Shown piece by piece: positions 1-64,000 of a DNA stretch of 64,000 bases. A program made the translations under genes and the position numbers. Source of the stretch: an uncultured virus (IMG/VR IMGVR_UViG_3300044608_000291) (lineage: Duplodnaviria > Heunggongvirae > Uroviricota > Caudoviricetes); IMG/VR virus record IMGVR_UViG_3300044608_000291, one strand, 5' to 3'. How positions within the stretch are numbered: position 1 is the first letter of the stretch; each line of letters starts with the position of its first letter. The notes beneath the pieces are model-generated. The model saw nothing but the letters and a program-made list of their open reading frames with translations. It was not told where the DNA came from and searched no databases.

Positions 1-126
1 GAATCTCTTCTTCCTCGACCGGAATCTCTTCTTCCTCGACCGGAATCTCTTCTTCCTCGACCGGAATCTCTTCTTCCTCGACCGGAATCTCTTCTTCCTC
101 GACCGGAATCTCTTCTTCCTCGACCG
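1..126. repeat. 21-bp perfect tandem repeat x6 (encodes PVEEEEI on the minus strand)
   Basis: Unit gaatctcttcttcctcgaccg repeated six times from base 1. Confidence 0.97.
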
Positions 127-14901: not shown

Positions 14902-15213
14902 CTAAGGAGTATAGACGTTGATGACCCCGAGACGCGGGACGGTTGCAAAGCCAAATAGCGGTCTGACCTGTGCTCGACTCTGCGGATAACCAGTAAAGTC
15001 AGGACGAGGATTGCGAATTGCCTGCGGATCCTCAACCGGGAACGTACCAAGCTTTAACTGCGGATGACTCGGATTCCAGCACTCCATACATGCCAGAATC
15101 TGCGTCGGGGTATCTTTAACAATCAGTTCTTTCAACTGCTTCAGTTTATACCGAAACCCACAAATATCACACTCCGCAATCGCCCGTTTACTGGACGCAA
15201 ACTTGCTGCTCAT
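14902..15213 (-). CDS. Zn-ribbon-like conserved phage protein
   Basis: CDICG...CMECW...HPQL. Confidence 0.7.
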   Translation of the reverse strand: MSSKFASSKRAIAECDICGFRYKLKQLKELIVKDTPTQILACMECWNPSHPQLKLGTFPVEDPQAIRNPRPDFTGYPQSRAQVRPLFGFATVPRLGVINVYTP

Positions 15214-20170: not shown

Positions 20171-20436
20171 CCGTAGAAGACGGTAGCCGTAGCGTTACTG
20201 ACGGTCGCGTACAGCAAGCTCGATACAAGAACGCCGTCTTCAGGAATTACGACCGAAAACGGGGTGCCGTTCGCAAGCGTAGTGACCGACAGGATCGTAG
20301 CGCCACCATCGCCATTGGTGAAGACGATTAACCCAGCGGTATCGCCGGGCACAATCAGAGCACCACGAAGCCGCGTCCGCGCCCCATAGACAACTCCGGT
20401 AGCTGAGACGTAAGCGGATTTAACGTCAGTTTTCAT
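20167..20436 (-). CDS. Small conserved beta-rich virion protein
   Basis: 89 aa; TDVKS...RTRLRG...IPEDGVL...TVFYG. Confidence 0.7.
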   Translation of the reverse strand: MKTDVKSAYVSATGVVYGARTRLRGALIVPGDTAGLIVFTNGDGGATILSVTTLANGTPFSVVIPEDGVLVSSLLYATVSNATATVFYG

Positions 20437-20570
20437 GGCTGGTTACCCGTGGGTTGTTGGGGTTGCGCGGGTGGGGGCGCAGGTTTGTTCAACAATTTAG
20501 CAAACGCTGCTTTAATTTGCTCTTGCTTTTCTTTTGGGTAGCTATCAAATATTTCTTTCATATTGTTCAT
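20433..20570 (-). CDS. 45-aa micro-ORF, copy 2 (not in ORF track)
   Basis: MNNMKEIFDSYPKEKQEQIKAAFAKLLNKPAPPPAQPQQPTGNQP; paralog of 22776-22916; ATGA-coupled to the next gene. Confidence 0.7.
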   Translation of the reverse strand: MNNMKEIFDSYPKEKQEQIKAAFAKLLNKPAPPPAQPQQPTGNQP

Positions 20571-20575
20571 AATAA

Positions 20576-21025
20576 TTACCCCGCAAGAATGGTGTTAATC
20601 ACGTTCAAGTTAATTATTGCATATACGTTGCCGCCGTATTCCCAAATGCCAGAAAAAGACGCAACAATATAACTAGCGGATGTACTAGTGCCTGTGACAG
20701 TTGCAATATTTAAATCTTGGATATTAGAATTGCTATTAAAATTAATTTCGACCCCAGTAAAAATTACCGCATCAAAACCCGCCATCGGCGCAATTGTTAG
20801 AGTAAGGTTGCCATCTGGGTAATGAAATTCCCAAAGAAACGTCGCAGTTTGACCAACTTCTGTAAACGCCGGTAATGTGTAAGTAGTACCTCCGGGCGTA
20901 ACCGGGATGATAGTAGGCGAACTGCCCCCGCCACCGCCACCACCTACAGGCGTCCAGACTCCATTAACTAGTTCTTGAAAGCCATTCTGTGACCGAAACG
21001 GTCCTGATACCGTTGAAGTACCCAT
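20576..21025 (-). CDS. Putative capsid decoration protein, paralog 3
   Basis: Begins MGTSTVSGPFRSQNGFQELVNG, poly-Gly linker, beta-rich C-domain related to paralog 1. Confidence 0.7.
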   Translation of the reverse strand: MGTSTVSGPFRSQNGFQELVNGVWTPVGGGGGGGSSPTIIPVTPGGTTYTLPAFTEVGQTATFLWEFHYPDGNLTLTIAPMAGFDAVIFTGVEINFNSNSNIQDLNIATVTGTSTSASYIVASFSGIWEYGGNVYAIINLNVINTILAG

Positions 21026-21027
21026 GA

Positions 21028-21507
21028 TTACTCCGTAAAGGTAATTCGTTTCTTAAACACCGCTGGGTTGCCAGCGTATATACATCCGCCTTCGTACTCG
21101 CCCGCCGGTACAACAGACCCAGCTCCAATTACTGCGTGATCACCAATCCTGCATGGGCCTAAAACTATCGACCCCGCCCCGATGAACACGCCTTTACCGA
21201 TTGTGATGTCGTAGCCCGTTTCTATAACACCATCTTTGCGCAGCTTACCTTTCTTGGCGATGTCATGCGTACCTGCGATTAACATACACCGCTGCCCAAG
21301 AAAGCTGTACTCGCCCATCGTAATACTGCCCGACGCTACATTCAGCACCGCCTCACCGTCGCAATCTACTGTTTCGTGGACATTGATCCGAGGGTGGTTG
21401 CGCCAATCTCTATCAAATCTGTTTGCCTTATGATGATCTTGAACGCGCGGGTACTTCCATAAAAAGTTAAACACCTGCTCCAACAATTGGGCAATCGTGT
21501 TATGCAC
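21028..21507 (-). CDS. Hexapeptide-repeat (LbH) sugar O-acyltransferase
   Basis: ITIGKGVFIGAGSIVLGPCRIGDHAVIGAGSVV...YAGNPA. Confidence 0.9.
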   Translation of the reverse strand: MHNTIAQLLEQVFNFLWKYPRVQDHHKANRFDRDWRNHPRINVHETVDCDGEAVLNVASGSITMGEYSFLGQRCMLIAGTHDIAKKGKLRKDGVIETGYDITIGKGVFIGAGSIVLGPCRIGDHAVIGAGSVVPAGEYEGGCIYAGNPAVFKKRITFTE

Positions 21508-22303
21508 TGGCAGCTACCTGTTTTCTTCGAAGTGCGTTTTCGTGAATTGCGTACGCGGTATCTAAAATCCAATGCTGTTTCCGCACTGGTTCTGCATTAC
21601 CAATAATAGGATGCGAGAACCGCGAGTAATGCACGTTGTCTTTATTGTTATACAAAAAGAAGTGCCCCGTGTGCCCGCCGGGCATGATGGTGTAGACCAG
21701 CCCAGCGTCGTTGTCTGTGCGGTACCGGGTGTACGGATGCTTGTGCAGGATCGGCATGATTGCCCGCGTGTATGGCACAGGGCCAGTGAGGCGGATCACG
21801 CCTAGCTTCCCACTGAGTTCACGGTTTGCCGGGTCGTGGATGTTACGCACCACGCGCTCGATGACTGCCTCTAGGAACGGATGCTTAGGCGCTGCGATCA
21901 CGTGCCACTGCTGGAACTCACCGTGCTCTGGTGCATCCCCATCAAACATACCTTTTGGTACATCTGCCCAATGGGACAGGATGTACTCACTGTTTGCAGT
22001 GAGCTTATCAAGCGGCATGATTACCGAACTCTTGATGTCCAGATATACGCCGCCCACTGCGTAGATCAGCAGATACCGAAACAGATCCGATCTCGCCGCG
22101 CCGTAGCTAGGATTAATCAGGTTGTACGTGTCCAACATCTCCTGACCGTAGTGCTGCTTGATAAACTCCACGCAGTCATCGTCGGTATAGAAGTTGTGCG
22201 TCCACCCCGGATTTTTAGCTACAAGCGAGGCGATGTTCTCTTCAATTTTCGGGTGTAATCCCGTCCGTTTGAAGAATGTCTGATGGATCTGTTTCGGGAT
22301 CAT
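21500..22303 (-). CDS. Glycosyltransferase, GT32/Och1-like
   Basis: IPKQIHQT, NPGW, AARSDLFRYLLIYAVGGVYLD, PKHPFL and LTGP motifs; DxD degenerate (DIK). Confidence 0.9.
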   Translation of the reverse strand: MIPKQIHQTFFKRTGLHPKIEENIASLVAKNPGWTHNFYTDDDCVEFIKQHYGQEMLDTYNLINPSYGAARSDLFRYLLIYAVGGVYLDIKSSVIMPLDKLTANSEYILSHWADVPKGMFDGDAPEHGEFQQWHVIAAPKHPFLEAVIERVVRNIHDPANRELSGKLGVIRLTGPVPYTRAIMPILHKHPYTRYRTDNDAGLVYTIMPGGHTGHFFLYNNKDNVHYSRFSHPIIGNAEPVRKQHWILDTAYAIHENALRRKQVAASA

Positions 22304-23590: not shown

Positions 23591-23620
23591 AAAAAAGAAA
23601 GGGGGCCGAAGCCCCCCTTC
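23591..23620 (-). terminator. Rho-independent terminator after the major capsid gene
   Basis: Minus strand GGGGGC-UUCG-GCCCCC followed by UUUCUUUUUU. Confidence 0.9.
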
Positions 23621-23632
23621 CCTACACCCCGA

Positions 23633-29992: not shown

Positions 29993-31513
29993 TCAGTAGT
30001 ACGCGCCACGTCGGCGACGGAACCCACGCGGCTCTTCAGGCTCATCGTTGGGCAGGCGAATGAACCCCCCTTGCCGGAACCGCATCAATGCTAGTGTAGT
30101 TGAATCAACGAGGTCGTCGTTAGCCCCGCTTGGGAAATCATTACATTCCTCGATTACTTCTTTAGCCCACCTGCGGTCGGGTGCCCACACAATACCGGAT
30201 GCAAATAAATCCGAGACAGCATTCACGCGACTGATCTTATCCTGACCTTTACCCGGCGTAAACTCGCCCACGGGCACACCCATGCGACGAAGCTCCTGAT
30301 ACAACGCTGCGCCGTTGGACTTCTTCTCAACCATGAACGCATCAGGCTCCCACTCCTTATACTGCTCGATCACGAGCTTCTTTAAGTCCGGGAACTCCAA
30401 GCGCCGCTTAATCGAGTTGAGCAGGATGATGTTGTAGTTGTTGACCTCTTCATTAAAGAAGACGCCCCACGTCGTCAGCGCGTTATAGTCTGCACGTGTG
30501 TTGGTTTCTTGCGCCGCATCCAGACTCATGATCGTAAATTCACAGTCTGGTGGCTCTTCTTTATCCCAAATCTTCCACCACTCACGCTTAATCAGTGCGC
30601 CTTCTTCGGAAGTGGGGTTCTGCATGTACTGGGCTTGCCAGTACCGGATATCAAGGGCTGCTTTCTTGGCTAAAAGCTCTTGTAGTGACCAGAATTCAGG
30701 CCAAAGTGGCTCGCCGTCGTCCTTAATTGCCGGAAAATCGATCACTTCCCACTGATCTACCCCGGTTTCTCGCTGCATTTGGTTCAAAATCTGGCCTGTG
30801 AGGTCCAGTTTTGACCATCTTGTCATCACAACGATAATAGCCCCATTAGGCATAAGACGCTGGATAGGCCCAGATTGAAACCACTCCCATGCAGGTAGAA
30901 AAACTTCGGGTCGTCCGGTCTTGGCTTCCTGCTCAGAATGTGGATCATCGATAATAAATAGGTGAGCCCCCCGGCCAGCGAGAGCACCCCCAACGCCTGA
31001 TGCAAAGTATTCGCCACCAAAGTTCGTCCCCCATCTAGAAGCTGATTTTGAATCTTGTTGCAGGCTGATTTGCGGGAAAATGTCCTTGTATGAGTCGGAA
31101 TCCACTAGATTTCGGACTCTACGACCAAAAGTCTCGGCCAAACTCGCTGTATGCGAGGCCATAATGACCTTATTCTGGGGAAATTTACCCAAATACCACG
31201 CTGGCGCGAGATAAGAGATCAATTCAGACTTGCCATGACGGGGGGCGATATTAACAATCACCCGTTTTTTCTTGCCAGAGGCAATATCTTCGAAGATTTG
31301 GGCAAGTTTGAAGTGATGCGGGCCTACTTTATAGCCGGGATAGACGTGCCTGACGAAATCCAAGAAGGAAGTTCGCCCAAGTTGCTGTGTAACTTGGGTC
31401 TCGTAGGTCTTTAAAAGGTCTAAAACCCGCTTTTTCTCGTTCAGTGGCAGGTTTGGGGCGAGTTTTTTGAGCTTAAATATCTGCTCTGGACTGATTTTTA
31501 ACGCTTCACTCAT
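29993..31513 (-). CDS. terL: Terminase large subunit
   Basis: Walker A NIAPRHGKS, Walker B FIIDDPH, VMTRW coupling motif, nuclease SLD...DDLVD. Confidence 0.95.
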   Translation of the reverse strand: MSEALKISPEQIFKLKKLAPNLPLNEKKRVLDLLKTYETQVTQQLGRTSFLDFVRHVYPGYKVGPHHFKLAQIFEDIASGKKKRVIVNIAPRHGKSELISYLAPAWYLGKFPQNKVIMASHTASLAETFGRRVRNLVDSDSYKDIFPQISLQQDSKSASRWGTNFGGEYFASGVGGALAGRGAHLFIIDDPHSEQEAKTGRPEVFLPAWEWFQSGPIQRLMPNGAIIVVMTRWSKLDLTGQILNQMQRETGVDQWEVIDFPAIKDDGEPLWPEFWSLQELLAKKAALDIRYWQAQYMQNPTSEEGALIKREWWKIWDKEEPPDCEFTIMSLDAAQETNTRADYNALTTWGVFFNEEVNNYNIILLNSIKRRLEFPDLKKLVIEQYKEWEPDAFMVEKKSNGAALYQELRRMGVPVGEFTPGKGQDKISRVNAVSDLFASGIVWAPDRRWAKEVIEECNDFPSGANDDLVDSTTLALMRFRQGGFIRLPNDEPEEPRGFRRRRGAYY

Positions 31514-32078
31514 CGATTTCGGGCTCGGAGCGTACGATTTCGTTGGCTTCCACGTCAATTATCTTGTTCTCAAGGCTCTCCAGAGTCCGAGCAAGCTCTC
31601 TTTCCACCTCTTCAAGCGTCTGAACCTTGATGGTCGATTCAGTTCTGCGCTTGAAGGCGTCAACACCATCCACTTCTCCAAGTTTTGATAGTGCCGCGAC
31701 GCGGATCTTCGGATCCTTAGCATGTTCAATCTCTGCCACAAGCTTATTGACCACGTACATCTTCAATTCAGCGAGGTCGTGGACAATAGACTGATTCATC
31801 TGGGCCACCATACCGGCCAGATATGCGAGCGTTTCGTTGGGGTAATTAGTAAAGTTAGGGCGTAATTGGGGGTCTTTGGCCATCTGCTGAGCTAAGGCAG
31901 TGGCCTCCTCAATATTACTCTGCGTGGGAGAAAGGGGCTGGCCGGTCAGGTCCGACATCAGCTTCACCACGTTGGCCCGCATATTCAATTCTTCAGTCGG
32001 CGTCAGTTTTGGCATTGCCTCGGCTGCGTTCGACGGGAGCGGGATGTTCTCCTCGATCGGGGGAATCAACGTAATCAT
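31506..32078 (-). CDS. Putative terminase small subunit
   Basis: First late gene, overlaps TerL start; helical RVAALSKLGEVDGVDAF. Confidence 0.6.
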   Translation of the reverse strand: MITLIPPIEENIPLPSNAAEAMPKLTPTEELNMRANVVKLMSDLTGQPLSPTQSNIEEATALAQQMAKDPQLRPNFTNYPNETLAYLAGMVAQMNQSIVHDLAELKMYVVNKLVAEIEHAKDPKIRVAALSKLGEVDGVDAFKRRTESTIKVQTLEEVERELARTLESLENKIIDVEANEIVRSEPEIDE

Positions 32079-33229: not shown

Positions 33230-33364
33230 GCGCCCTCGCCCCGCGATGCCAGTTCTTCGTCGTCGCGCGCATGCTAGGCTCGTGCGTGTAATACACGGCT
33301 GACGCGTCACGATCGCACTGAGTAGCTAAATAACAGCGTTTTACTTCATTTAGCTAAATAGTTT

Positions 33365-33380
33365 CCTGACAGTTGTCAGG
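33365..33380. promoter_or_regulatory. Palindrome A site 2 (CCTGACAGTTGTCAGG)
   Basis: Perfect arms; left edge of the origin-like region. Confidence 0.8.
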
Positions 33381-33399
33381 GAAATTTCGGCGGTTTTTT

Positions 33400-33790
<391 letters not shown>

Positions 33791-33830
33791 AATCCCCCGC
33801 CGACCCCCGCTATAACTAAACTATTTCATT

Positions 33831-33900
33831 TAGACGCTTGACGTATACGTCAAGTTATGGTAGAATACGCTTTGGGGCAGGCTGATCTTTGCTTTCCCCT
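33831..33900 (+). promoter_or_regulatory. Early promoter module copy 1 with palindrome B
   Basis: TTGACG(33838)-17-TAGAAT(33861) with extended TG; CTTGACGTATACGTCAAG at 33837-33854. Confidence 0.85.
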
Positions 33901-33927
33901 ACCCGGCGCAGTTGCGCTATTTACTTC

Positions 33928-36587: not shown

Positions 36588-37694
36588 ATGCAGATCAACA
36601 CCGTTCCCCTGATGACAATCGCCGACCTGCGTCGTGCTATCCCGGTGATCACGCCCTCACTGACAATGGTCATCCAATCCGAGCCCGGCTGCGGTAAGAC
36701 TTCACTACTTGCTATGGTCGCAGAAGACATGGGTGACCGTTGGCGCAAGCCCGGTGATGACTATCCGGACGACAAGTATGACTATATCTACGTGGACTGC
36801 CCAGTGAAGGACATGCAGGACATCGGCATGGTCGTGCCCAACCACGAGAAGCAGAGCCTTGAGTATTACGTCGCGTCGCTGTTCAAGATGGGTAGCGGCA
36901 AGCCGAAGTTCATCTTTCTGGATGAGCTATTGAAAGCACCGAAGATGCTGCAAGTCATCTTCACTCGGCTAATGTTGGAGCGGATGATCGGCGACGTGCC
37001 GCTGCCGAAGGGTTCGATGGTTGCTGCCACATCTAACAATGCTTCAGATGGTGTCGGTGACACGATGCTCGCCCATGCAGGTAATCGCGTGTGTCGTGTG
37101 GAGATGAAGAAGCCTGACCATGACGAGTGGGGACTCTGGGCGGCAGAGAACAATATCCATCGCTCTATCCGTACGTTCGTTGCTCTCACGCCGCGCTGTT
37201 TGAATTCATACCGTGACGGTGGGCAAGAGAATAACGAGTTCATCTTCAAGCCAAACATGGGGACGCTTTCGTTTGTCTCGCCGCGCTCGCTTGCCAAGTC
37301 GGATGTGATCGTGCGCAACCGTGATGTGTTCGGGCCACAGGCAACGCAAGCAATGCTCGCTGGCACAATCGGCGCGGCTGCGGCTGCACAGATGAGTGCG
37401 CTGATGGCTATGGATAAATCATTGGACGACGTGAAGGACATCGTGCGCGACCCGGACAACGTGTCTGTGCCTGATGACATCGCCGCGCAGTTGATGATCA
37501 TGTTGCAGGCGGTGGATACGCTCGACAATCACGATGATCTAGAGAAGTTTATGGTGTGGGTCAATCGTGTGCCGTCAGCCGAGGTCCAATCGATCTTCTT
37601 TACACAGATGGTACGCACACCCCGCGCTTCCAAACTCGCACGTCGCAACGAGGCCATCAAGAATTGGTGCATCAAGAATCACGTGTTGCTGTAA
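36588..37694 (+). CDS. MoxR-like AAA+ ATPase
   Basis: Walker A SEPGCGKT, Walker B FIFLDE, ATSN, NR finger, SPRS sensor II. Confidence 0.88.
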   Translation: MQINTVPLMTIADLRRAIPVITPSLTMVIQSEPGCGKTSLLAMVAEDMGDRWRKPGDDYPDDKYDYIYVDCPVKDMQDIGMVVPNHEKQSLEYYVASLFKMGSGKPKFIFLDELLKAPKMLQVIFTRLMLERMIGDVPLPKGSMVAATSNNASDGVGDTMLAHAGNRVCRVEMKKPDHDEWGLWAAENNIHRSIRTFVALTPRCLNSYRDGGQENNEFIFKPNMGTLSFVSPRSLAKSDVIVRNRDVFGPQATQAMLAGTIGAAAAAQMSALMAMDKSLDDVKDIVRDPDNVSVPDDIAAQLMIMLQAVDTLDNHDDLEKFMVWVNRVPSAEVQSIFFTQMVRTPRASKLARRNEAIKNWCIKNHVLL

Positions 37695-37785
37695 TGCCTG
37701 AGGCTCGGGGGAGACATTAGCGTTTCCCCTAATAGTCAAGTTGTGTTTTTGTAGTGAAAATGTAGTCCCAACGTAGGAGTCAGTC

Positions 37786-39102
37786 ATGCAAGACGTTATG
37801 TCCATAGTCGAAGAGCAGTCGATGCGTATCAAGAAAGCGCACATCGCGCTAATGCGCCAGCCAAGTACCGCGCTGTACAGTGGTGTCTTACTCATGGGTA
37901 AGAACGAGGTGATCGAGGGTAACTTCACTGCCTACACTGATGGTTTGAACAAGCGTTACTGTGCGCAGTTCCTCGCCACGCTAAGTGACCCAGAGGTACG
38001 TGCGCTGGTGCTGCACGAGAACCTGCACGTCGCACTCAATCAGTTGCTGCGCGGCAAGCACTTGTTCGAGGAGTCACGTCAGCTAGCGAATATCGCAGCG
38101 GACTTCGTTGTGAACGGGATCATCTGCAACATCCGTGTGAAGTTGCAAGGCACAGAAGAACCATTGCTCAGGTTACCCGCTGGTGGTGTGTTCGACCCGA
38201 TGTTCAACGATTGGTCTTTCCCCGAGGTATTCGCGTATCTCAAGCAGCACTGCCAGCCGAAGAACAGCGAGGGGAGCGGCAACCCCAAGCCCAGTGGTCA
38301 AGGAGATAGCGAGGGTAATCAGTCTCCTGACAGCCGTCAGGACTCTAATCAGTCAGAGAAGAACGAGATCACAGTCAATGGTCAGACGCATGACCTGACC
38401 AACGCCGACGAGCATGACATCGAGCGTGCGCAGTCGATGGATGCTGAGGCAGTGAAGAAACAATCCAAGCAGATCGAAGACGCACTGCGGCAAGGCGGTA
38501 TCCTCGCTGGTAGGCTCGGCGCAAAGATGCCACGTGCGATCACCGAGGCACTTGAGTCTGCGGTGTCGTGGCAAGACGTGCTGCGTGAGTTTGTATCCTC
38601 ACACACCAAAGGCAAGGATGAGTACACATGGCGTCGGTACAACCGTCGCTTGCTCGCTAATGATCTATACATTCCTAGCGTAATGAACGAGACAGTGGGC
38701 GAGATCGTCGTCGCCATCGACACATCAGGTTCAATCGGTCAGAAGCAACTCAACGAGATGGCAACAGAGCTTGCGTCGATATGCGAGATGTGCGAGCCCG
38801 AGACTGTGCGTGTGCTGTGGTGGGACACAAAGGTCCACTCGGAGCAGAAATTTCTACCCGAGCAATACCATCAGATCCGTACGCTCCTCAAGCCCGAGGG
38901 GGGTGGGGGTACACGGGTCAGTTGTGTCGCTGACTACATTGGGAAGAACAAGATCCCTGCCGAGTGCGTCGTCGTGTTCACTGACGGGTACGTGGAGAAT
39001 TCACCACAGTGGACGATAACGATCCCGACGCTGTGGCTTGTTACAGAGAATCGTCACTTCACCCCGCCCGCTGGTGGGCGTTCTGTTCGCATGGAGAAAT
39101 AA
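37786..39102 (+). CDS. DUF2201-type metallopeptidase plus VWA domain protein
   Basis: TAYTDG, HENLH zincin motif, N.AAD..VN, MIDAS DTSGS, GGGGT, FTDGY. Confidence 0.88.
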   Translation: MQDVMSIVEEQSMRIKKAHIALMRQPSTALYSGVLLMGKNEVIEGNFTAYTDGLNKRYCAQFLATLSDPEVRALVLHENLHVALNQLLRGKHLFEESRQLANIAADFVVNGIICNIRVKLQGTEEPLLRLPAGGVFDPMFNDWSFPEVFAYLKQHCQPKNSEGSGNPKPSGQGDSEGNQSPDSRQDSNQSEKNEITVNGQTHDLTNADEHDIERAQSMDAEAVKKQSKQIEDALRQGGILAGRLGAKMPRAITEALESAVSWQDVLREFVSSHTKGKDEYTWRRYNRRLLANDLYIPSVMNETVGEIVVAIDTSGSIGQKQLNEMATELASICEMCEPETVRVLWWDTKVHSEQKFLPEQYHQIRTLLKPEGGGGTRVSCVADYIGKNKIPAECVVVFTDGYVENSPQWTITIPTLWLVTENRHFTPPAGGRSVRMEK

Positions 39103-41696: not shown

Positions 41697-41781
41697 GCGA
41701 CAGTGACGGAATAGGTAGACGTGGCGGACTTAAAATCCGCCGCCCTTGGGCGTGCCGGTTCGACTCCGGCCTGTCGCACCA
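41697..41781 (+). tRNA. tRNA-Leu (UAA)
   Basis: Acceptor GCGACAG/CTGTCGC, GGTAGAC D-loop, anticodon stem GCGGA/TCCGC with TAA at 41731-41733, long variable arm, GTTCGAC, encoded CCA. Confidence 0.95.
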
Positions 41782-54644: not shown

Positions 54645-54822
54645 GTGGATATTCCCGTTTCAAGGCATGGCAGTCGGGGATAGTTTCTTTATCCCCACTG
54701 CACGGGTCGCAGAGATGATGTACGCGATTGAGTCGGGGGCCAAGCGGGCGCAAGTCCGTGTTAAGGCTTACCCGACTATCAAGGATGAATGCTTAGGCGT
54801 ACGTGTGTGGCGAGTGCGCTAG
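54616..54822 (+). CDS. Small putative DNA-binding protein
   Basis: FPF..M.VGDSFFIP...GVRVWRV. Confidence 0.75.
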   Translation: MDPQQMLEPEWIFPFQGMAVGDSFFIPTARVAEMMYAIESGAKRAQVRVKAYPTIKDECLGVRVWRVR

Positions 54823-57800
54823 TCTTCCAGCCCGTATGCTTTCAGTGATTGAACAATCTCATTCTTGATCAGATTTTGTTCAAACATATTAATCTTGAGC
54901 AGGGCTTGACGATCGGCGGGCGAATAGGCAGTAGTCCGCCGAATCTCATTAGCTTCTTGGCGCAGAGCGCGTAGCCGTCCGTTCACGTTCTTGTTGTATG
55001 ACTCTACAATCGCCTCATCGAAAGGATGCTTGGATATGTAGTCGTCATACTTGGGCGGATTCGTAGCAAACATCTTCAAGCGCCGCTCTATGTCGGCAAC
55101 TTTCTGCTCAGCCTTTGCGAACTCACGTGCATCAACATTCCCGCGTGTGCCGAAGAAAGACCCAAGCAACGGAATGTCGTTCTTGGGGTTGAACGCTTTC
55201 TCGCCAGTGGAAAGCTGCGATATCCCGTATGGCATCTCAAATAGCAGTTTAGCAAAACCATCAAGATAGCTATTAGCTAGGAAATACATTGTGTTGGGGC
55301 TGATGTCGATGCCCCCATCGCTCTCGTCCGCCAAGAACCGCGCGGCATCCCGATAGATCCCCGGAATTTTGTCCCCGGCGGTATACGCATCACCAAAACG
55401 ACGGTTTCGGTCGTTGTAAATATCCTGCCCTAGACCATTCTTGTTCATCGCAAACTCAATCAGCGGACGTGCAAAGCTAGGCGTAATCGAGTCAATAGCG
55501 AACTGAAGCGGCATCTCTGTAGCAGGCATCCGCGAGATCGGCAATGGGATGAATGAGTCAAACGCGATCTGCGTGAATACATTAGCTAGCGCATCACTAA
55601 CCTTTGCTTCACCGAATGTCGCTGAAGCTAGCTGTGCCCCGGCTGAAGCAAACGCGCCAAGGCCAAAGCCCCACGGGATCTGGATGATCAAGGGTTCGTC
55701 AAGATTCAATCCGAGCGAGTCTGTTACTGCCTTCGGGATGTGGAACCGTGCGTACCGAGTCCACTGCTGCATGTTGTCGTAGGCGACAGTATTGCGACCG
55801 AGGTCATCGTCATCCGACATCATGAGTGCCATCATGTAGACCATGACTCCGGACATGAGTAGTCCAGTCGTGGCGACTCGGGCATTCTTTTGCCGCTCTC
55901 CGTAATTCTTCCGCCATTTAGCAAGAGCGGCCGGGTCAGTTTGAATTGATGTCGGAAGAGATTTCTCTACGCTTTTGATATCTCTAAACGCAGGCGCTAC
56001 CGCTTCAATCGCGCGGACCGCACCAGTTGCAGCGGGACGGAAGAACATGAAGAGAGACCCGAGGATCTTGCCCCACTGTCCGACTTGTTCAAAGTTTGCA
56101 AGGTTCTTCACGTAAGCAACCGCTTTAGCTGCGGCCTCATCACGTGACATGCCTTGCTTAATATAACGGTCTCGAACAGAAGCAAAAGCTGCGGAACGAC
56201 TGGCGATCTCAAACATGTCGTTCCAGATATCAATAAACTTGTTGATATCTTCGACCTTACGCACAACGCCGTTTCGACCAATGCTCTTGTAGAGTTCTTG
56301 AAACTGAGAACGCAGGCTCATGCCTGCGAGATATGACACCATACCCCCAGCGCGGATGTACTCCACCATATCGCGGATGTACGGATCTTTCTGCGCCATC
56401 GAGTTGAGAGCGAGTTCAGCCTGTGCGCCACCTTTACCGTATGTGGCTGCAACCATCATGGCTTTATACAAACCATTGTTGAACACGACTCTATTTGAAA
56501 GAGTGCGCAAGAAGTCTAAGCCCGCCTTCGGCCCCATCTCTGCGCCAAGCGTAAACGCATTCGTGAACGCATCAGTCACGAAGTTCTTCGGCGCGAATTG
56601 ATAGTTGTAGCGAGTATGGGTCTTACCGATAAAGCTCGTGATTCCATTTGCCGCCGTGATGATGCCTTGCACCAACGGGTCAGATTGTTGGAAAGTTTTA
56701 CGGATCGATTCAAGATAATTCTTGTCCGCGATCTTCAATACGTAGACCGTGCCGTCTCTGTCATAGTGGAAGATGTAGTCTGCATTCTTGCTGTACTTCT
56801 CTAAGTCACCACTCTCTCGTTCAGCAAACGGGATGACCTTATACACAGATCCGCCCAATAGATTCTGGCCGTCTGGGTTTTTCTTCGGGTTCGCATCCAG
56901 AGAATTTTTAATCGCAAGGGTCACATCTTTACGCCCTGCGCGAACGGAAGCCCGGACTGCATCCGAGAGAGCCTGCAAGATCGGGTTGTCAGAAACGGTA
57001 GCACGCCCTTCCATCGCGAAGGTCGAATCCTGCAACTCCGCGCCCATCTTGCGGCTATTGGGGTCAAGCATTTCATCAGCTTCGGTCGCACCAGCGACCT
57101 TTTTACGCTCTTTCCCCTTTAACGGGACATAGTGCTTGTAGCCGTAGAAATTGACATGGTTCGAAACCGGGTCTGACCAGTAGTTTGATTCTTTATCCAG
57201 CTTAGCTGAAACGTCGGTTACTTTTTTCAGAGCTTTTAAGATGTCATCGATTTCTTTTAGATTGACATTACGTTTGTATTCATCCGTGATCTGATCTACC
57301 GACGCTTTGTTCATAGCCGTGACTTGATAGACATCGGCATCATCTTTATTAACCGGATAGAAGTTTGTATCGACTCCCGCAACGGTGCCATCTTTCTTGA
57401 CGACTTGCAGCGGACTCTGCCCAAACTTATCTACGTATGCAGTCGTCTCATAATTAACCGGCATACCATCAGCGTCGATATTTTTGAATACAAGTTTGTT
57501 GAGCCGCTTGCGTAAGGCTTCAGCTTCAGCCTTAGTGAGTTTGTCCTCTTTCAGAGACTTAAAGATTGCATCGCGCCGCGCATTCGCTTGATCAGTAAGT
57601 GGGACAAGCCGCAAGTATTTAATCATCCGACGCTCAGGTTCATGCAAAGCCTCAGTGATCAAGTGCAGTTCAGCGAGCACATCATCAATTTTCTTACCGG
57701 CCTTCTTCGCGTAGACATCAATCGCTTGCTCAAGTTCACGATAGACCGGTGCAACCTCGCGCAAATAATAGTCTTTGGCTTTACCCGTCGCGGTCGTAAT

Positions 57801-60800
57801 CGCACTATAAATAGCCGTGGTTTTTGGCCCGCTATACGTCAGCTTCCCTGCCATCGCAAGGGCATCTTCCCAAAGCTTGATGAAGTAGCGATCGTTCTGA
57901 AGATTACGTGCAACCCGCTGCATCCCCGGCACACTGAGCAAAGTCTTCCGCCAGTCATTCACTGTACGTGGACGCTCTTTGTTGTTCAGTTGGTAGTCAT
58001 CTGGGATCTTATTCAAACTAAGGACGGCTGCGGGCGCAGCAGTTGTCTTCTTAGCGGCAAGCGGTTCAACCTCAACAAGAGCAGGGGCAGTAATGATATT
58101 GCGGAAGATTTCAGCGGTCTCGATCAGCGCGTTACCTTCAAAGCCGGGGAGTGTGGCTAAGAATGCTTTGCCTTGTTTCGGTACATAACGCTTACCTTTT
58201 GGTTTCTCTACCTCGTCAACAACCGCATTATCTTCAGGCGTGACTAACTCTTCGACCGTATACAAATCGCGCTTCTGCTCCGGCTTCAATCGAGAATTAA
58301 GATCGCTAGCAAAAGCCTTGAAAAATTCGGGCCGCAATTCCATCGCAGTAGCACCGGGGCGCAGAAGATCAAACATCTTCATGAACATCTTCGTAAATTG
58401 ATGGAAGAGGTTCGCGGCTTTCTTGGTGTACTTTGCAAGTGGACGTGACTGGATGTTAGCTAACTCAGTTTGAAACCGAGTGTCGGTCATTGCGTAGCTG
58501 ACAAACTCATACAGACTTTCAAACGCGGGCTTGAATCGTCCGTTTAACTTCGGTTTTGCAGCGTCAAAAATCTTCTGTAAGTGCTGCATTGCCTCGCGCT
58601 GCGCGTCAGTCAGCGCGGAGGGATTGGTCAGATACGTGTAAATCGTCTGAACAGTTACTGCATGAACAATCTCATGCAGGACCGTAGTCTCATCCATCCC
58701 GTCTTTAGACAGGTAAATCGTATTAGTCTTGGGATCATACTCAGCAAGTTTGCCAGCCGCCTTCAGCCGTGCGTCAACATCCGCGCCTGTCTTAAATTGA
58801 GGCGGGTTCTTCATCGCAAAAGCGCGAATCGAACTGGCGATGTGCGACGTAAGAGCGGCAGAGATCTGTTGGCGAAGAGCAAGGATGTCGGCAAAGTCGC
58901 TCGTTGCTCCGGTACCTTTCAACTCGTCTTTGCTAGGCTGATATATGCGTAGCCCAGTTGCTGTCTTGGCAATTGAATCTAATACACGACTAAGAATAAT
59001 TGCAGGCCGAGCTTTGTCTGCTGATTCTAGGTCTTGTTGCAGAGTCTCTTTAAGGCTAGCGCCTTTACCCTTTTCTTGTTCGCTCTTGCGTGTTTCTTCA
59101 GCCGCGCGTTCATCAGCGCGGCGTTTAGTTTCAGCCGCTTGATCTTGTTCCCGTGTAGTTTCAATCACCTGCTGTCGCTTAGCACCGCGCACACCGGGGA
59201 CATACTCGCCCGTCTTGACTAGTGCGTCGGCAATTTTATCAACCGCATTCGTTACGTCCTGTACAGTCGGTCGGAAGACATCAAAATCTTTGCCCGCCGA
59301 GACTTCATTGACTGGCACCCCAAGTCGCGCAGCAACATCCGCGTTTACCGAATCAGTAAATGTTTTTTGAAGCTCAGGCGATAGCTGCCCCCAAGCTGGC
59401 AGATCAAAATCCACTCGATCAGATTGTTCAGCGCGAAACAAATCGTAGTTAACAGCCGACCGCTGCTCAGGAACCGACTGTTTCTTAGACCGTAAATCTT
59501 CTAACTCAGCAATTGCAGTCTGATGTTCGTCATACGTGTTGCGACGAATGTTGTTCAGATAGAAATCACGCTCAGCAAGTGTCAACTCGCCCCATGACGG
59601 GAGCGGTTTCTTTGCTTCACCGAATTCTTCTCGGGCTTCCTCGTACAGATCAATTACCGGCTGAGGCGTAGCGCCGCGCTCAAGATCAAGTTGACCTTGT
59701 TCCTTTGGTACAGGAGGTTGACGGACTTCAGTCTCGGCAGTAACTGTCTCAACCGGTTTTGGTTTGCGCCCGCGACGCGGGAACATTTCAATCTGTTCAC
59801 CAAGTGGCGCAGGTAGATCCGCAACAATTGCAGTTGGGGGAGTCAGCTCGACTTTTGGCGCTGCTGTTCCTTGAGCAGCCGCTTCTGTTCTTGCTTCTTC
59901 TGTTTGGACGGCTTGGGGGGCTTCAGTGACACTGGGGGCTCCTTGAGGTGGGGTAGCAGGAGTTAAAAGTGTGCGCGAGCCATTTGCTCGCATCGGGGAA
60001 ACCAAACCAGCTTGTTCCATCTGTTCAAGCAATCGTGCGGCGTGGTTATATCCGATCCGGAGTTGCCGTTGAAGCAATGAAATTGAAGGCCGCCCCGTCT
60101 TCGTGACAACATCAACTGCCTGATCATAAAATTGCTCAGACGTAGCCGCAGGAGGAGTCGTAGCCGCAGGAGGAGTCGTAGCCGCAGGAGGAGTCGTAGC
60201 CGCAGGAGGAGTCGTAGCCGCAGGAGGCGCGGGGGGTGCAGGTGTAGTAACAGCAGGCGCAGGAGGAGCGGGCGGAGGACCGAGATCCTCGGATAACAAA
60301 CCGCTAACCTTTGCTTGACGTTCCGCTTCGGCTTTCTGTTCTTCTGGGGTTAACGCAGTCTGTGTCTGTGTTTGTGCAGCCGCTTCGGCTTCCGCCTTGG
60401 CTTGGAGTTCAGCGCCGCGCTTAGCTTCCTCTTCCTGACGAGCTGCCATACGGGTACGGGCACCACCAATACCCCCCGGACCAACAGACATGCCGAATGC
60501 AGCCGCGACTGTATCAATGTATTCTTTTAACGCCTCAGCATCTTGTAGAGAAAGCTTAGCGCCGTAGCGTTCAGCAGCAGTCTGGATCAACTCGACCGGC
60601 GTTTCTTTCGCGCCGGTAACAAGAATGCCTTTGGTGATGTCCGTGGCAAGGTTGCCAGTAGACTTGGGATTTAACTTAAACGCACCAAGCGCGATCTTAT
60701 CGCCGATGAATTCCGCAACTGTTGAAACAAGACCCGCAGGAAGGACACGCTCAAGTTCAATGTCTTCTGGGCGTCCTGTTTCTTCAATAGCCCGACCCGT

Positions 60801-61517
60801 GACCCCACCAAAGCCTTGCACACCTGCTTGTGCGCCAAGACCAATTGTGGACCCGGTGCGCTTAGCTGCTTGTGTCAATACTTGCTTGGCTTCGCGCTCA
60901 ACAAATTCTTTAGCAGCTTGTTCGCCGCTTTCTGCCGCAATCTTCTGCGCGGCTTCCATCACGCCTTTCTTGATGAGCGTCTTGCCCACCAGACCAGCAG
61001 CGGCACCGGGGATAGCCCCCACACCCCCGCCACCGATACCCCCCGCAGTAGCGCCCCCGGCCATAAACACAAGAGATTCAAGAACACTACCGAGACCCGC
61101 GCCCACCTGATACGGTAGCCAGTCGGTCAAGACAGTAGTGATTCCCTTATCCCACGCATTTGTGAACGAGTCAGACTCGCGGACGGTTTGACGGGCTTCC
61201 CCCGCCTTCATAGTCTGGACACCGGCCTGCATCATCTCCGGACTACCAGCAACTTTGCCCGTCAATGCTTTTACCGCGCCATATGCTTCCTGCAATTGGC
61301 CGGGGATATTAGCGACCCCACGGAACAGATCACTGGACTTGTCTTCATCTGACAACCGACGTGGGCCGGGGGGAGGTGGCGTGTATTTCTGATAAGACGG
61401 CGCAGAGCTTTCAAATTGACCACGAAGATATGTCAGCCCCTCAAGTGATACCCCGTCTAAGTTGCCCTCACGTAGCGCGAGAAGATCAGGTAGAGAAAGC
61501 CGATCATAATCAATCAC
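54819..61517 (-). CDS. Large polyvalent/ejection protein (2232 aa): Gly-rich hydrophobic N-region, FtsK-gamma domain, zincin peptidase, LPD38-like C-terminus
   Basis: HEIVH at 58662-58676; FtsK-gamma-like segment at about 59962-60135; C-terminal IPWGFG..F, P..E..MNK..G..IY motifs. Confidence 0.82.
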   Translation of the reverse strand: MIDYDRLSLPDLLALREGNLDGVSLEGLTYLRGQFESSAPSYQKYTPPPPGPRRLSDEDKSSDLFRGVANIPGQLQEAYGAVKALTGKVAGSPEMMQAGVQTMKAGEARQTVRESDSFTNAWDKGITTVLTDWLPYQVGAGLGSVLESLVFMAGGATAGGIGGGGVGAIPGAAAGLVGKTLIKKGVMEAAQKIAAESGEQAAKEFVEREAKQVLTQAAKRTGSTIGLGAQAGVQGFGGVTGRAIEETGRPEDIELERVLPAGLVSTVAEFIGDKIALGAFKLNPKSTGNLATDITKGILVTGAKETPVELIQTAAERYGAKLSLQDAEALKEYIDTVAAAFGMSVGPGGIGGARTRMAARQEEEAKRGAELQAKAEAEAAAQTQTQTALTPEEQKAEAERQAKVSGLLSEDLGPPPAPPAPAVTTPAPPAPPAATTPPAATTPPAATTPPAATTPPAATSEQFYDQAVDVVTKTGRPSISLLQRQLRIGYNHAARLLEQMEQAGLVSPMRANGSRTLLTPATPPQGAPSVTEAPQAVQTEEARTEAAAQGTAAPKVELTPPTAIVADLPAPLGEQIEMFPRRGRKPKPVETVTAETEVRQPPVPKEQGQLDLERGATPQPVIDLYEEAREEFGEAKKPLPSWGELTLAERDFYLNNIRRNTYDEHQTAIAELEDLRSKKQSVPEQRSAVNYDLFRAEQSDRVDFDLPAWGQLSPELQKTFTDSVNADVAARLGVPVNEVSAGKDFDVFRPTVQDVTNAVDKIADALVKTGEYVPGVRGAKRQQVIETTREQDQAAETKRRADERAAEETRKSEQEKGKGASLKETLQQDLESADKARPAIILSRVLDSIAKTATGLRIYQPSKDELKGTGATSDFADILALRQQISAALTSHIASSIRAFAMKNPPQFKTGADVDARLKAAGKLAEYDPKTNTIYLSKDGMDETTVLHEIVHAVTVQTIYTYLTNPSALTDAQREAMQHLQKIFDAAKPKLNGRFKPAFESLYEFVSYAMTDTRFQTELANIQSRPLAKYTKKAANLFHQFTKMFMKMFDLLRPGATAMELRPEFFKAFASDLNSRLKPEQKRDLYTVEELVTPEDNAVVDEVEKPKGKRYVPKQGKAFLATLPGFEGNALIETAEIFRNIITAPALVEVEPLAAKKTTAAPAAVLSLNKIPDDYQLNNKERPRTVNDWRKTLLSVPGMQRVARNLQNDRYFIKLWEDALAMAGKLTYSGPKTTAIYSAITTATGKAKDYYLREVAPVYRELEQAIDVYAKKAGKKIDDVLAELHLITEALHEPERRMIKYLRLVPLTDQANARRDAIFKSLKEDKLTKAEAEALRKRLNKLVFKNIDADGMPVNYETTAYVDKFGQSPLQVVKKDGTVAGVDTNFYPVNKDDADVYQVTAMNKASVDQITDEYKRNVNLKEIDDILKALKKVTDVSAKLDKESNYWSDPVSNHVNFYGYKHYVPLKGKERKKVAGATEADEMLDPNSRKMGAELQDSTFAMEGRATVSDNPILQALSDAVRASVRAGRKDVTLAIKNSLDANPKKNPDGQNLLGGSVYKVIPFAERESGDLEKYSKNADYIFHYDRDGTVYVLKIADKNYLESIRKTFQQSDPLVQGIITAANGITSFIGKTHTRYNYQFAPKNFVTDAFTNAFTLGAEMGPKAGLDFLRTLSNRVVFNNGLYKAMMVAATYGKGGAQAELALNSMAQKDPYIRDMVEYIRAGGMVSYLAGMSLRSQFQELYKSIGRNGVVRKVEDINKFIDIWNDMFEIASRSAAFASVRDRYIKQGMSRDEAAAKAVAYVKNLANFEQVGQWGKILGSLFMFFRPAATGAVRAIEAVAPAFRDIKSVEKSLPTSIQTDPAALAKWRKNYGERQKNARVATTGLLMSGVMVYMMALMMSDDDDLGRNTVAYDNMQQWTRYARFHIPKAVTDSLGLNLDEPLIIQIPWGFGLGAFASAGAQLASATFGEAKVSDALANVFTQIAFDSFIPLPISRMPATEMPLQFAIDSITPSFARPLIEFAMNKNGLGQDIYNDRNRRFGDAYTAGDKIPGIYRDAARFLADESDGGIDISPNTMYFLANSYLDGFAKLLFEMPYGISQLSTGEKAFNPKNDIPLLGSFFGTRGNVDAREFAKAEQKVADIERRLKMFATNPPKYDDYISKHPFDEAIVESYNKNVNGRLRALRQEANEIRRTTAYSPADRQALLKINMFEQNLIKNEIVQSLKAYGLED
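60141..60227. repeat. 18-bp tandem repeat x4.8 (AATTPP linker)
   Basis: Unit cgtagccgcaggaggagt. Confidence 0.95.
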
Positions 61518-61519
61518 GT

Positions 61520-63406
61520 TTATTGTCCTTGACCAGACTTACGAGCAATAGCTGCATTGATTGCGTTTAGATCCATACCGCCTGAAGAAGTGCCTAAGTT
61601 GATACCGGCGCGTTTAGCATACGCTGTATAGGTCTGCCGCGCGCGACTAATTTCATCTTGGAATTGCTTGTCGAGATTCGACAACCTTTGAGCAGCCGTG
61701 TTGTACATGGATTCGGCTGTCTTATTATTTGGCTCTTTTTCTAGCATAGCGCGGGCTCTCGCCAATTGCTGCGCACTTGCCGCGTATTCGCCATTCGGTT
61801 TATTTTTAACTTCCGCAATCTGCGTAAATAGTCGGCTAAGATTTTTGTCTGCTTCAAGGAAGTCACGGTATGCTCTATCTTCCTGACGGCCAGTCTCAGC
61901 AAACCTTTGTTTGGCTTGTTCAAGCGCAAAAGTACGATCACGGTCGAGAGCTTGCGCCATAATGCTGGACTGATCGAGGCGGTTCTTTTCCTCATTATTC
62001 AGGAACGACCCAGCAGAACTCAAAGCAGAAGTCCGGGCACGAGTAGTTTCAGTGCGCCCAGCAGCCCCTGCTTTCTCTGCTGCACCACGTCGGCCAGCCT
62101 CAAGCCCACGGGCTTGTTCTTCTAAATCGAAGATGTCACGCATCCCGCGCTCACGTGCGGACTCTTCGCGTAGCGCGGCGTTCAACCCACTAGCCCCAGC
62201 AGCAGTCAATGCGCCGAGTCCACTTGTACGGCCACCGGCACCGATCAACGCTTGAATCAATTCACGTCGAGGAGCGTTACGCTCAGATTCAGCTAACGTG
62301 CCCCGCCGACGCTCGACTTCAGCGGCCCGTGCTCTTGCTTCTTCCTCTGCTTTTGGCCCCGCAAGATATCTTTCGGTTTCCTCCCGAATACGCCTTGCTT
62401 CTGCGTTTGGATCCATCGAAATATCGGCTTGAGCCTGTTCTCGATATTTTAGACCCAGCGGATCCGGTGGTCCTGCTCGTTGTGCTGCTTGTTGCTGTAA
62501 ATATGCAAGACCGCTTTCACGCTGTGTGGGTGCTTCGGGGCGCGGTGCAGCGGGGCGTGGTGCTTCGGGACGCGGAGCAGATGGGGGAGGCGTCTGATTA
62601 TCCGTCGGGGGCGCTCCTTCATAGGTCGCTACACCACCGGGAACCGCAGTCGGATCACCAAGCGTTCTAGTCGCCGCTTCAGCCGCCTCACGCCGACGCA
62701 CCCTATCATAAGCCGGTGTCATACTTGAACGATCGCCGCCGTATGCTGCTTCCGGTAGATATGGTATTGGCACACCAAGCGCACGTAATGGGCGTGTAAC
62801 GCCGGTTTCAAACGCCCCCATAAGCCCGCGCGGTACAAGGGTCGCAATATCATACCCAGCAGCGGCAAGTTTACGTAGCGCATTTAACATAGCTTCACGA
62901 TCGCCACGAGCCTGCGCCGCTTCAACCTCCCGTTTTGCTTCTTCTGTGTCTCCAGCAGAACCGCCCGCTTGAAAGGCAACAATCCCACCTCCAGCCATCC
63001 GCACATTACCTGCGCCGGGAGCAGCAGCGATCCCACTCATCAACGGGCTTTGCTGACCTTGACCCTGCATAGCCTGCATGATTTGCTTTAGCGCGGCTTG
63101 CTGTTGACGTTGATTATTTTGGGCGACACCAGTTGCTTGCTGGGCTACGCCTTGTGAAGGATTTACTTCACTCTTCGCACCTTCAACGGCTTCTTGCTGA
63201 AGCGCTTCGACAACAGTTGGCTGTTGCCCTTGCTGCTGCGCCATATCCGCGATCATTTGATTTTTCGCGGACGCTTGCATCTCTTTAACTTTGGCGAGCG
63301 CAAGTGCGTCAAGGAGATTGTTGGACATGCCCAAGCGTTTCATCAACGCAGCAGGATTACCTTTAAAGGTTTGAACCCGCGAGTCAACGTCACTATAGAT
63401 AGACAT
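61520..63406 (-). CDS. Putative ejection/internal virion protein
   Basis: 628 aa, Ala/Gln/Arg-rich helical; PTVVE and MAGGGIVAFQAGG motifs. Confidence 0.7.
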   Translation of the reverse strand: MSIYSDVDSRVQTFKGNPAALMKRLGMSNNLLDALALAKVKEMQASAKNQMIADMAQQQGQQPTVVEALQQEAVEGAKSEVNPSQGVAQQATGVAQNNQRQQQAALKQIMQAMQGQGQQSPLMSGIAAAPGAGNVRMAGGGIVAFQAGGSAGDTEEAKREVEAAQARGDREAMLNALRKLAAAGYDIATLVPRGLMGAFETGVTRPLRALGVPIPYLPEAAYGGDRSSMTPAYDRVRRREAAEAATRTLGDPTAVPGGVATYEGAPPTDNQTPPPSAPRPEAPRPAAPRPEAPTQRESGLAYLQQQAAQRAGPPDPLGLKYREQAQADISMDPNAEARRIREETERYLAGPKAEEEARARAAEVERRRGTLAESERNAPRRELIQALIGAGGRTSGLGALTAAGASGLNAALREESARERGMRDIFDLEEQARGLEAGRRGAAEKAGAAGRTETTRARTSALSSAGSFLNNEEKNRLDQSSIMAQALDRDRTFALEQAKQRFAETGRQEDRAYRDFLEADKNLSRLFTQIAEVKNKPNGEYAASAQQLARARAMLEKEPNNKTAESMYNTAAQRLSNLDKQFQDEISRARQTYTAYAKRAGINLGTSSGGMDLNAINAAIARKSGQGQ

Positions 63407-63415: not shown

Positions 63416-64000
63416 TTAATTCTGTCTAAAGAGTGTATCCAACAGGCTCAAGATGCCGCCTGTGCCGCCAAGAATCTCGGACAGAGCACTGGGCGCTTGA
63501 TAGCCGTAGCTTTGCGCCGCAAGGGGAAGCCCCTGCAAGAGTGATTGCGTAAACTGCACTTGCTTGTACGGAAAGTCGCGCTGCTCTTTGAACTGTTCAT
63601 AGTCCGCAGTGATACCTTGCTGTTCGATATCGCGCTGTTGCCCGCCAAAATCAGCTTGCTTTTGTAGCGCCGCGAGACCGTACTGCTGCGCAGCTTGATT
63701 CGCAGCCATCTGACGTTGCTGCTCAGTATTGAACTGCCCTTGTGCCACGTCGTAAGCTGACTTATAGCCCTCGCCTAATGTACGTGCGATATTGGCCCCA
63801 AGTCCACGCTCAAGTTCACCCTCAAGAATCGCTTGCCGTCCGCCACCATAAGCACCGGCTCTAGACATCCGCGAAGCATTCTCCATCCTACGGATATCCG
63901 CTTGACGATTCATCTCGTCAATCTGAGGCTGCAATGCCGCCGTCAGATACGGGTTCATATATTTACTGGCTGTACCTTGATCAGTAAACGACCCCGGCGT
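63416..64000 (-). CDS. Putative DNA ejection protein (5' end outside window)
   Basis: Frame open to 64000 (TPGSFTDQGTASKYMNPY...); GAYGGGRQAI motif; Gln-rich; hydrophobic Gly-rich C-end. Confidence 0.72.
   Translation of the reverse strand, partial: TPGSFTDQGTASKYMNPYLTAALQPQIDEMNRQADIRRMENASRMSRAGAYGGGRQAILEGELERGLGANIARTLGEGYKSAYDVAQGQFNTEQQRQMAANQAAQQYGLAALQKQADFGGQQRDIEQQGITADYEQFKEQRDFPYKQVQFTQSLLQGLPLAAQSYGYQAPSALSEILGGTGGILSLLDTLFRQN

Follow-up and report, generated by a model that had tools for sequence, protein, structure and literature searches.

Introduction

Among the polyvalent proteins surveyed by Iyer, Burroughs, Anand, de Souza and Aravind (2017, J Bacteriol, PMC5512222), the winged helix-turn-helix of FtsK is mentioned as a rare double-stranded DNA (dsDNA)-binding domain, in one sentence and with one Cupriavidus example. 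Such proteins, which are large multidomain products of phages or mobile elements, join an FtsK winged helix that lacks its motor to LPD domains and a zincin-like peptidase and are predicted to bind dsDNA after delivery, provide the point of comparison for the subject of this study, that is, an FtsK gamma domain inserted in P0001, the giant product of an open reading frame (ORF) of an uncultured tailed virus (IMG/VR record IMGVR_UViG_3300044608_000291), in which such a winged helix and an LPD domain are found together with a putative peptidase region. The stretch of DNA analysed, hereafter the window, is 64,000 nucleotides long. The FtsK-gamma/polyvalent fusion type is already published; what is new here is the anatomy of the slot that receives the domain in the LPD38 family, the intact state of its contact residues and the clade of sister copies found in LPD39 and InPase proteins.

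Three other systems are relevant. In the short-tailed phage phi24B, gp47 (2811 amino acids; LPD5, LPD1, LPD38 and MuF-C peptidase domains) was detected by proteomics as an abundant virion component, could not be seen in cryo-electron microscopy maps and has been proposed to be an encapsidated ejection protein of a phage with SU10/GP4-like tail parts (bioRxiv 10.64898/2026.04.10.717836). P0001 is likewise a giant LPD38 protein and the window likewise has two SU10_adaptor genes, but no FtsK gamma is reported for gp47, and Pfam finds neither LPD5 nor LPD1 in P0001. The cellular FtsK gamma (2VE8/2VE9, 2J5P and the XerD-gamma fusion 5DCF) is 52-58% identical to the window gamma and has the three-helix winged fold and the contact residues in common with it. 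However, it forms the C-terminus of an alpha-beta translocase, whereas the window gamma lies inside P0001 (residues 460-519 of 2232), with long linkers on either side and no motor in the window. Finally, the Bacillus phages Sam46 and Sam112 carry an N-terminal FtsK_gamma on their small terminase, for which recognition of the phage's own DNA was proposed by authors who saw no clear excess of FtsK-orienting polar sequences (KOPS) and stated that it is not known what phages use motor-less gamma genes for (PMC8190038). As in the window, a DNA-handling phage protein has there captured a host-like gamma, but its partner is a packaging initiator in phages of Gram-positive hosts, while the partner here is a putative virion/ejection protein. 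Beyond the survey of Iyer et al. and this terminase paper, the literature searched yielded no functional work on a gamma that is injected or virion-borne.

The explanation that we favour, and hold to be slightly more probable than improbable, is that the gamma of P0001 is a captured and still canonical KOPS-type dsDNA reader, which would be one of the interchangeable cargos of an injected polyvalent protein and keep its carrier, whole or as a fragment, attached to duplex DNA.

A canonical gamma domain without a motor

The peptide from which the domain was originally recognised (FYDQAVDVV...SRTLL) corresponds to residues 463-518 of P0001 and is encoded on the minus strand, the plus-strand frame over the originally assigned interval having many stops. 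The strand is all that needed adding to that assignment, which several lines of evidence uphold. The FtsK_gamma family (PF09397) matches residues 460-519 with an E value of 3e-21 and 75.3 bits (cut-off 30.6), covering profile positions 3-62 of 63, and nine of the ten PHROG families that match P0001 fall on the gamma stretch. A phmmer search of PDB sequences retrieved the Pseudomonas aeruginosa FtsK gamma (2ve8/2ve9/2j5o; E 1.2e-17), to which the window gamma is 58% identical, as well as the Escherichia coli gamma (2j5p, 5dcf). An AlphaFold2 (AF2) model of residues 440-530, computed from a 28-row alignment, displays three helices and a wing with a core predicted local distance difference test score (pLDDT) of 84-91, and the first 13 ranks in a Foldseek search with this model are all FtsK gamma (2ve8/2ve9/2j5p among them), with template modelling scores by target of 0.72-0.90 and root-mean-square deviations of 0.8-2.2 Å. 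This model replaced a single-sequence one of the same residues, which was poor (pLDDT 65, helices merged).

Low-complexity sequence made of P, A, T, S, G, Q and E lies on both sides of the domain (residues 357-470 and 511-564), and the Pro/Ala/Thr linkers with AATTPP repeats that had been noticed originally are accounted for by a perfect 18-bp tandem repeat (Table 1). Neither P0001 nor any further ORF scanned contains a recognisable FtsK motor (PF01580, PF17854), in agreement with what had been stated at the outset.

KOPS-reading and XerD-contact residues

The residue lists used here follow E. coli numbering and were taken from two papers, XerD contacts from Table 1 of PMC5052618 and KOPS-blind positions from PMC2680272. 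The E. coli gamma touches XerD through Q1288, R1289, R1292, I1293, G1294 and N1296, which are a subset of its DNA contacts; R1289 is critical, its change having the greatest effect, and R1297 is a control position whose change leaves activity at wild-type level (Keller et al., 2016; PMC5052618). R1300A, E1303A and E1306A make FtsK KOPS-blind, and R1300A and E1303A still support XerCD recombination (Sivanathan et al., 2009; PMC2680272). When aligned to 2j5p/5dcf, the window gamma reads Q-R-x-x-R-I-G-x-N-H-x-x-R-x-x-E-x-x-E, with all six XerD contacts and all three KOPS residues kept. The sole change in the contact stretch is R1297H, at the control position, where H is also found in cellular FtsKs. 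As for the two more distant sister copies introduced below, P0002 keeps all nine residues and P0231 has one conservative change, R1292K. Owing to this conservation, the activities suggested in the original prediction (gripping or orienting the entering genome, competing with host FtsK, or switching on host XerCD recombination for the phage) are chemically possible.

The last of these, in which the injected gamma would contact host XerD and start XerCD recombination to the benefit of the phage or the detriment of the host chromosome, has in our view a small chance of being right. It can call upon the preservation of all six XerD contacts, R1289 included, and upon the fact that isolated, motor-less gamma activates XerCD-dif recombination in vivo as well as in vitro, with topologically complex products. 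There is also a known analogue of the idea, XafT of the satellite phage TLC-phi, which is phage-encoded and activates Xer recombination without FtsK (PMC6744903). However, since the XerD contacts lie within the DNA contacts, DNA binding alone explains why they are conserved, and R1300, E1303 and E1306 are conserved too, although the first two are dispensable for XerCD activation. Moreover, appreciable recombination in vitro took a high concentration of free gamma, while an ejection protein comes in few copies. XafT belongs to an integrative element with a dif-like site, whereas in the window, against E. coli-type motifs, no dif-like site was found (the best 28-mer agrees at 15 of 22 arm positions, and 30 shuffles gave 14-17) and XerD-arm-like 11-mers with at most two mismatches are as frequent as expected (12 versus 12.0). 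The replication module is of a lytic type, and no integrase, repressor, lysogeny module or sign of integration was found among the ORFs scanned in the window. The lack of an integrase that had been invoked for XerCD activation is thus confirmed within that scope, and the activation itself finds no support in the window. A complex prediction for the window gamma and residues 105-298 of E. coli XerD scored 0.06 (mark 0.32), which speaks neither for nor against such a contact.

Optional cargo in a hypervariable slot

The homologue search scored 7999 candidates and returned 821 homologues at E <= 1e-5, the best 120 of which were used for domain counts. LPD38 is present in all of these 120 and PF09397 in none, with ParB_N and DUF6861 occurring once each; a locally built gamma hidden Markov model (HMM) detected among the same 120 a single weak copy (P0099, 11 bits), which is of the same type as that of L003, one of five related viral loci (L001-L005). 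The giant proteins of these five loci all contain LPD38. A full gamma is found only in L001 (90% identical), the copy in L003 is sub-threshold (22 bits), and L004 and L005 have no recognisable domain in the corresponding place. As for the presence or absence of the domain in homologues, which the original prediction had left to be checked, L001 has it and the best 120 family members lack it, with a degenerate form in L003/P0099.

The place in question is bordered by two conserved blocks, GPGGIGGARTR (around residue 345) and LPSWGELT (around residue 640). P0093, the nearest gamma-less relative (58% identity), has between them a different insert of ~220 residues, and P0094-P0097 have yet other inserts. 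The distance between the header and peptidase anchors ranges from 484 to 1333 amino acids in the 112 of 120 members in which both anchors were found. Gamma is an optional cargo in a hypervariable slot between flexible linkers.

Some of the other contents of the slot can be described. In L002 (9887-17353, residues 636-701)/P0209, it is occupied by ParB_N (29.5 bits, cut-off 26.3). The P0093 insert (residues 451-670) is kinase-like according to its language-model neighbours (YrbL, T7 kinase, OspG and Kinase-PolyVal, scores 0.92-0.94), which is a lead only. In L003 (1-7203)/P0099, residues 445-570 include Gly-rich nonapeptide repeats, which take the place of the Pro/Ala/Thr linker, followed by the degenerate gamma-like winged helix; the RTX-type match of these repeats is weak and does not reach the cut-off (17.5-17.9 bits).

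The slot also bears on the idea that the tethered gamma would read KOPS-like sites on entering or packaged phage DNA and thereby orient, clamp or pull it. The gamma is held by flexible linkers beside a putative membrane-inserting module, much as the cellular gamma is placed next to the FtsK pore. This would suit such a role, for which the gamma-terminase fusion of Sam46/Sam112, with its proposed recognition of own DNA (PMC8190038), offers a precedent. Yet none of the 120 best relatives has a gamma, though DNA ejection must be alike in all of them, and the partner sequence is scarce as well. The E. coli-type KOPS motif GGGNAGGG occurs twice in the window (23615-23622 and 33897-33904, both on the minus strand) where 4.8 +/- 2.0 occurrences are expected, and it is at or below expectation in the five related loci too. 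A search of the window for a private guide motif, in the form of a skewed or repeated octamer, returned words that reflect coding bias and a single (TA)n run, none of them a strongly skewed repeated octamer. We consequently see only a slim prospect for a grip on the phage's own genome, and the original suggestion that it would operate through KOPS finds no support in the motif counts.

Sister copies and origin of the domain

Long proteins that match gamma (n=91, 1227-3906 amino acids) are FtsK translocases with a motor in 90 cases. The exception is P0002 (1927 amino acids), which consists of the same N-terminal header as P0001, a linker, gamma at residues 454-513, an HExxH motif and LPD39. A search of proteins of more than 116 amino acids added P0231 (997 amino acids), in which the header (26% identity, E 3e-12) and gamma (64%) are joined to InPase. 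A FastTree phylogeny of 115 unique gamma domains, built on ~65 residues and on a sample chosen because it resembled the query, groups the window gamma with those of L001, P0231 and P0002 in a clade that has no other member (support 0.889). Members of this clade share the header but differ in their C-terminal domain (LPD38, InPase or LPD39), and while the header has drifted to 26-35% identity, the key gamma residues are intact.

Motor-less gamma is common in phages and rare in giant virion proteins. IMG/VR contains nine loci with related gammas, of which one is the contig of L001 and the other eight have the domain in ORFs of 85-416 amino acids, and 284 GenBank phage records have a gamma-like match, mostly in genes annotated as RdgC-like, FtsK-like or hypothetical.

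The closest cellular gammas are 63-72% identical to that of the window. Burkholderiales or beta proteobacterium appears in the titles of the six top-scoring genome loci, and betaproteobacterial genera account for the named proteins among the best 120 gamma matches, both searches having preselected candidates that share words with the query. When 301 Pseudomonadota genomes were sampled evenly, 286 matches were obtained, and those listed, which bear no taxon names, are 43-69% identical. A betaproteobacterial ftsK is thereby suggested as the donor, which sits oddly with a structural protein of the same phage that is 60-67% identical to proteins of marine SAR116 phages and of cyanophages.

Since identity to any cellular gamma found is at most 72%, the capture was not recent. 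This matters for the possibility that the domain is a functionless passenger, a piece of host ftsK caught recently and by chance in a recombination-prone linker, which we regard as highly improbable. The slot is indeed an insertion hot spot, and the fully identical copies of the 18-bp repeat point to recent change. Set against this are the divergence from cellular gammas and the persistence of sister copies in three architectures, with key residues intact beside a header that has kept only 26-35% identity.

The carrier and how its gamma might act

P0001 fits a phage-type polyvalent protein, in that LPD38 and several unrelated domains are found in one ORF among late genes; polyvalent proteins are defined by such a domain make-up, and LPD38 is listed among the phage-type-only domains in the survey of Iyer et al. 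(2017; PMC5512222). Its residues 1460-2062 match the giant protein of Shiga toxin (Stx) phages including vB_EcoP_24B (~24% identity, E 4e-11), and no full-length homologue was found in cultured phages, where coverage is at most 28% of the giant protein. The putative metallopeptidase region contains a HEIVH motif at residues 948-952 (window 58662-58676, minus strand), and HExxH is kept in six of six aligned homologues. The giant gene is the last of the second leftward stretch, at the end of the late/virion gene block. The name of giant polyvalent ejection protein that the carrier received in the original prediction is thus a reasonable label, resting on gene position and on homology to phi24B gp47, a virion-borne, distant homologue of its C-terminal part.

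A plausible sequence of events would be as follows: (i) judging from the same homology and gene position, the carrier would be packed into the capsid and ejected with the DNA, (ii) once in the cytoplasm, the tethered gamma would bind duplex DNA with a KOPS-type preference and (iii) this would keep the whole protein, or a fragment freed by its putative metallopeptidase, on the DNA. Since the phage DNA is not enriched in GGGNAGGG, while a diverged clade of polyvalent-protein gammas has preserved the specificity residues, the host chromosome would be a likelier target than the entering genome, although this is the last and weakest step of the explanation.

Several points weigh against this favoured explanation. 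The likeness to phi24B gp47 spans only 27% of P0001 at ~24% identity, and the slot may end up in the cytoplasm, in the periplasm or in the capsid interior. The cargos of the slot are not all DNA binders, as illustrated by the kinase-like P0093, so that occupancy of the slot says by itself nothing on DNA. The degenerate L003/P0099 copy has lost Q1288, R1289, N1296, R1300 and E1303, which means that some lineages do without specific reading. The shortness of the gamma alignment and the choice of its sample, described above, limit what the clade can carry. Lastly, the guide motif of the host may differ from the E. coli-type KOPS, whose counts would then be beside the point.

Should the host chromosome be the target, the injected gamma might act on the segregation machinery of the host, either through unregulated XerCD recombination at dif or by masking KOPS from FtsK. 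We consider this unlikely; the XerD and KOPS contacts, all intact and conserved across the diverged clade, would be compatible with it, but a hijack of XerD or FtsK is unsupported. The masking variant would make the gamma a decoy, which would occupy host KOPS or compete with the gamma of FtsK, as the original prediction had it, and disturb late chromosome segregation. The retention of KOPS-reading residues across a diverged phage clade would agree with this, as would the 63-72% identity to the nearest cellular gammas, by which the domain still resembles the tip of host FtsK, and the proposal that polyvalent proteins carry host-directed effectors (PMC5512222). However, as is generally understood, few injected molecules would face many KOPS sites, and E. 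coli with a KOPS-blind FtsK grows normally (PMC2680272), which implies that KOPS masking would be of little consequence to the host over a single lytic cycle. A decoy is, on balance, rather improbable. Returning to the favoured explanation, namely a KOPS-type reader that would hold its carrier on duplex DNA, it is on the genomic context of this carrier that we now focus.

Genomic context

An ORF and profile scan shows that the window is most of a tailed-phage genome; it is not the whole, because ORFs extend past both of its ends. A leftward late block encodes terminase (29993-31558), portal, capsid, two SU10-type adaptors, lysozyme and tail genes, and a rightward block encodes a family A DNA polymerase, a PD-(D/E)XK nuclease, an SNF2 helicase and a DUF927 primase-helicase, that is, the lytic-type replication module. 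The features of P0001 and of its immediate neighbours are listed in Table 1. The phrog_4287-like gene is kept upstream of the giant gene in four of the five related loci (L001, L002, L004 and L005). No near-identical phage DNA was found among GenBank phages, and the nearest genome record (G001, a 32-kb fragment) has no match to the giant protein.

Table 1. P0001, its parts and the genes next to it (window positions; residues refer to P0001)
Feature	Position	Strand	Basis and remarks
Giant ORF P0001, LPD38-type polyvalent, putative ejection protein	54819..61517	-	2232 amino acids, GTG start; homologues
N-terminal header, residues 1-356	60450..61517	-	Gly/Ala-rich; weakly hydrophobic segment 138-156; common to P0002 (LPD39) and P0231 (InPase)
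Charged helical stretch and Pro/Ala/Thr linker, residues 357-459	60141..60449	-	
18-bp tandem repeat encoding PAATTP repeats	60141-60227	-	4.8 copies, 100% identical
FtsK gamma winged-helix domain, residues 460-519	59961..60140	-	Pfam, PDB sequence search, AF2, Foldseek
Second low-complexity linker, residues 520-600	59718..59960	-	
Putative zincin-like metallopeptidase region, residues 789-1040	58398..59153	-	phrog_2206 match; no Pfam peptidase match
Strongly hydrophobic, transmembrane-like segment, residues 1881-1901	55815..55877	-	
LPD38 domain, residues 1912-2094	55236..55784	-	Pfam E 7.6e-17, 62.4 bits, cut-off 27
628-amino-acid gene, same operon, upstream of giant gene	61520..63406	-	no family match; variable among relatives
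Ejection-like gene, cut by window end	63416..64000	-	weak match to phrog_4287 'DNA ejection protein'

Other parts of the window deserve mention. A second giant ORF (at least 2366 amino acids; 2-7099, minus strand) runs past the window start and has a Gly/Ala-rich hydrophobic N-terminus, proline runs and dozens of degenerate repeats of ~35-70 residues around an 'EGYTLT' core, with an acidic heptad repeat at its C-terminus that is encoded by 21-bp tandem repeats at 13-130. Pfam gave only sub-threshold helix-turn-helix-like fragments for it, and no homologue of it was found in loci L001-L005.

Among the structural genes, a paralogous SU10_adaptor pair (13900-14538 and 15210-15905, both on the minus strand; 76 and 51 bits) points to a tail of the SU10/GP4/phi24B type. 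The product of 7555-8940 (minus strand) matches phrog_1645 'virion structural protein' (E 1e-142) and is 67% identical to a protein of Puniceispirillum phage HMO-2011 and 60-66% identical to Synechococcus myophage proteins, the remaining genome being unrelated; HMO-2011 was rejected as a model phage, inspection of 30 kb having shown no giant gene. The structural block also includes, at 19424-22303 (minus strand), a hexapeptide acyltransferase gene and two genes of DXD glycosyltransferase-like type.

Between the divergent late (leftward) and replication (rightward) blocks, the intergenic region 33297-33856, which contains a run of ~15 TA dinucleotides at 33646-33675, may be an origin or promoter region; the KOPS-like octamer at 33897-33904 lies ~220 bp from this run. 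Further to the right, 36588-39102 (plus strand) encodes an ATPase (phrog_1297) followed by a protein with DUF2201 metallopeptidase-like and VWA-like domains that PHROGs labels 'HNH endonuclease'. A tRNA-Leu (anticodon TAA) at 41697-41781 (plus strand) is the sole tRNA found in the window.

Concluding remarks

With a published fusion type and an inferred function, the gamma of P0001 amounts to a solid annotation rather than a surprise. Its value lies in offering a well-bounded example of cargo trading in giant polyvalent virion proteins, where a fixed header precedes a linker-flanked slot that is either empty or filled by gamma, ParB_N or a kinase-like domain. The gamma is small and soluble and comes with ready-made assays (electrophoretic mobility shift on KOPS, recombination of two-dif plasmids), which makes it one of the easiest polyvalent cargos to test. 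If an activity on XerD or KOPS turned out to be true, this phage would be delivering a mimic of a host segregation factor, that is, a piece of housekeeping machinery used as an effector of takeover.

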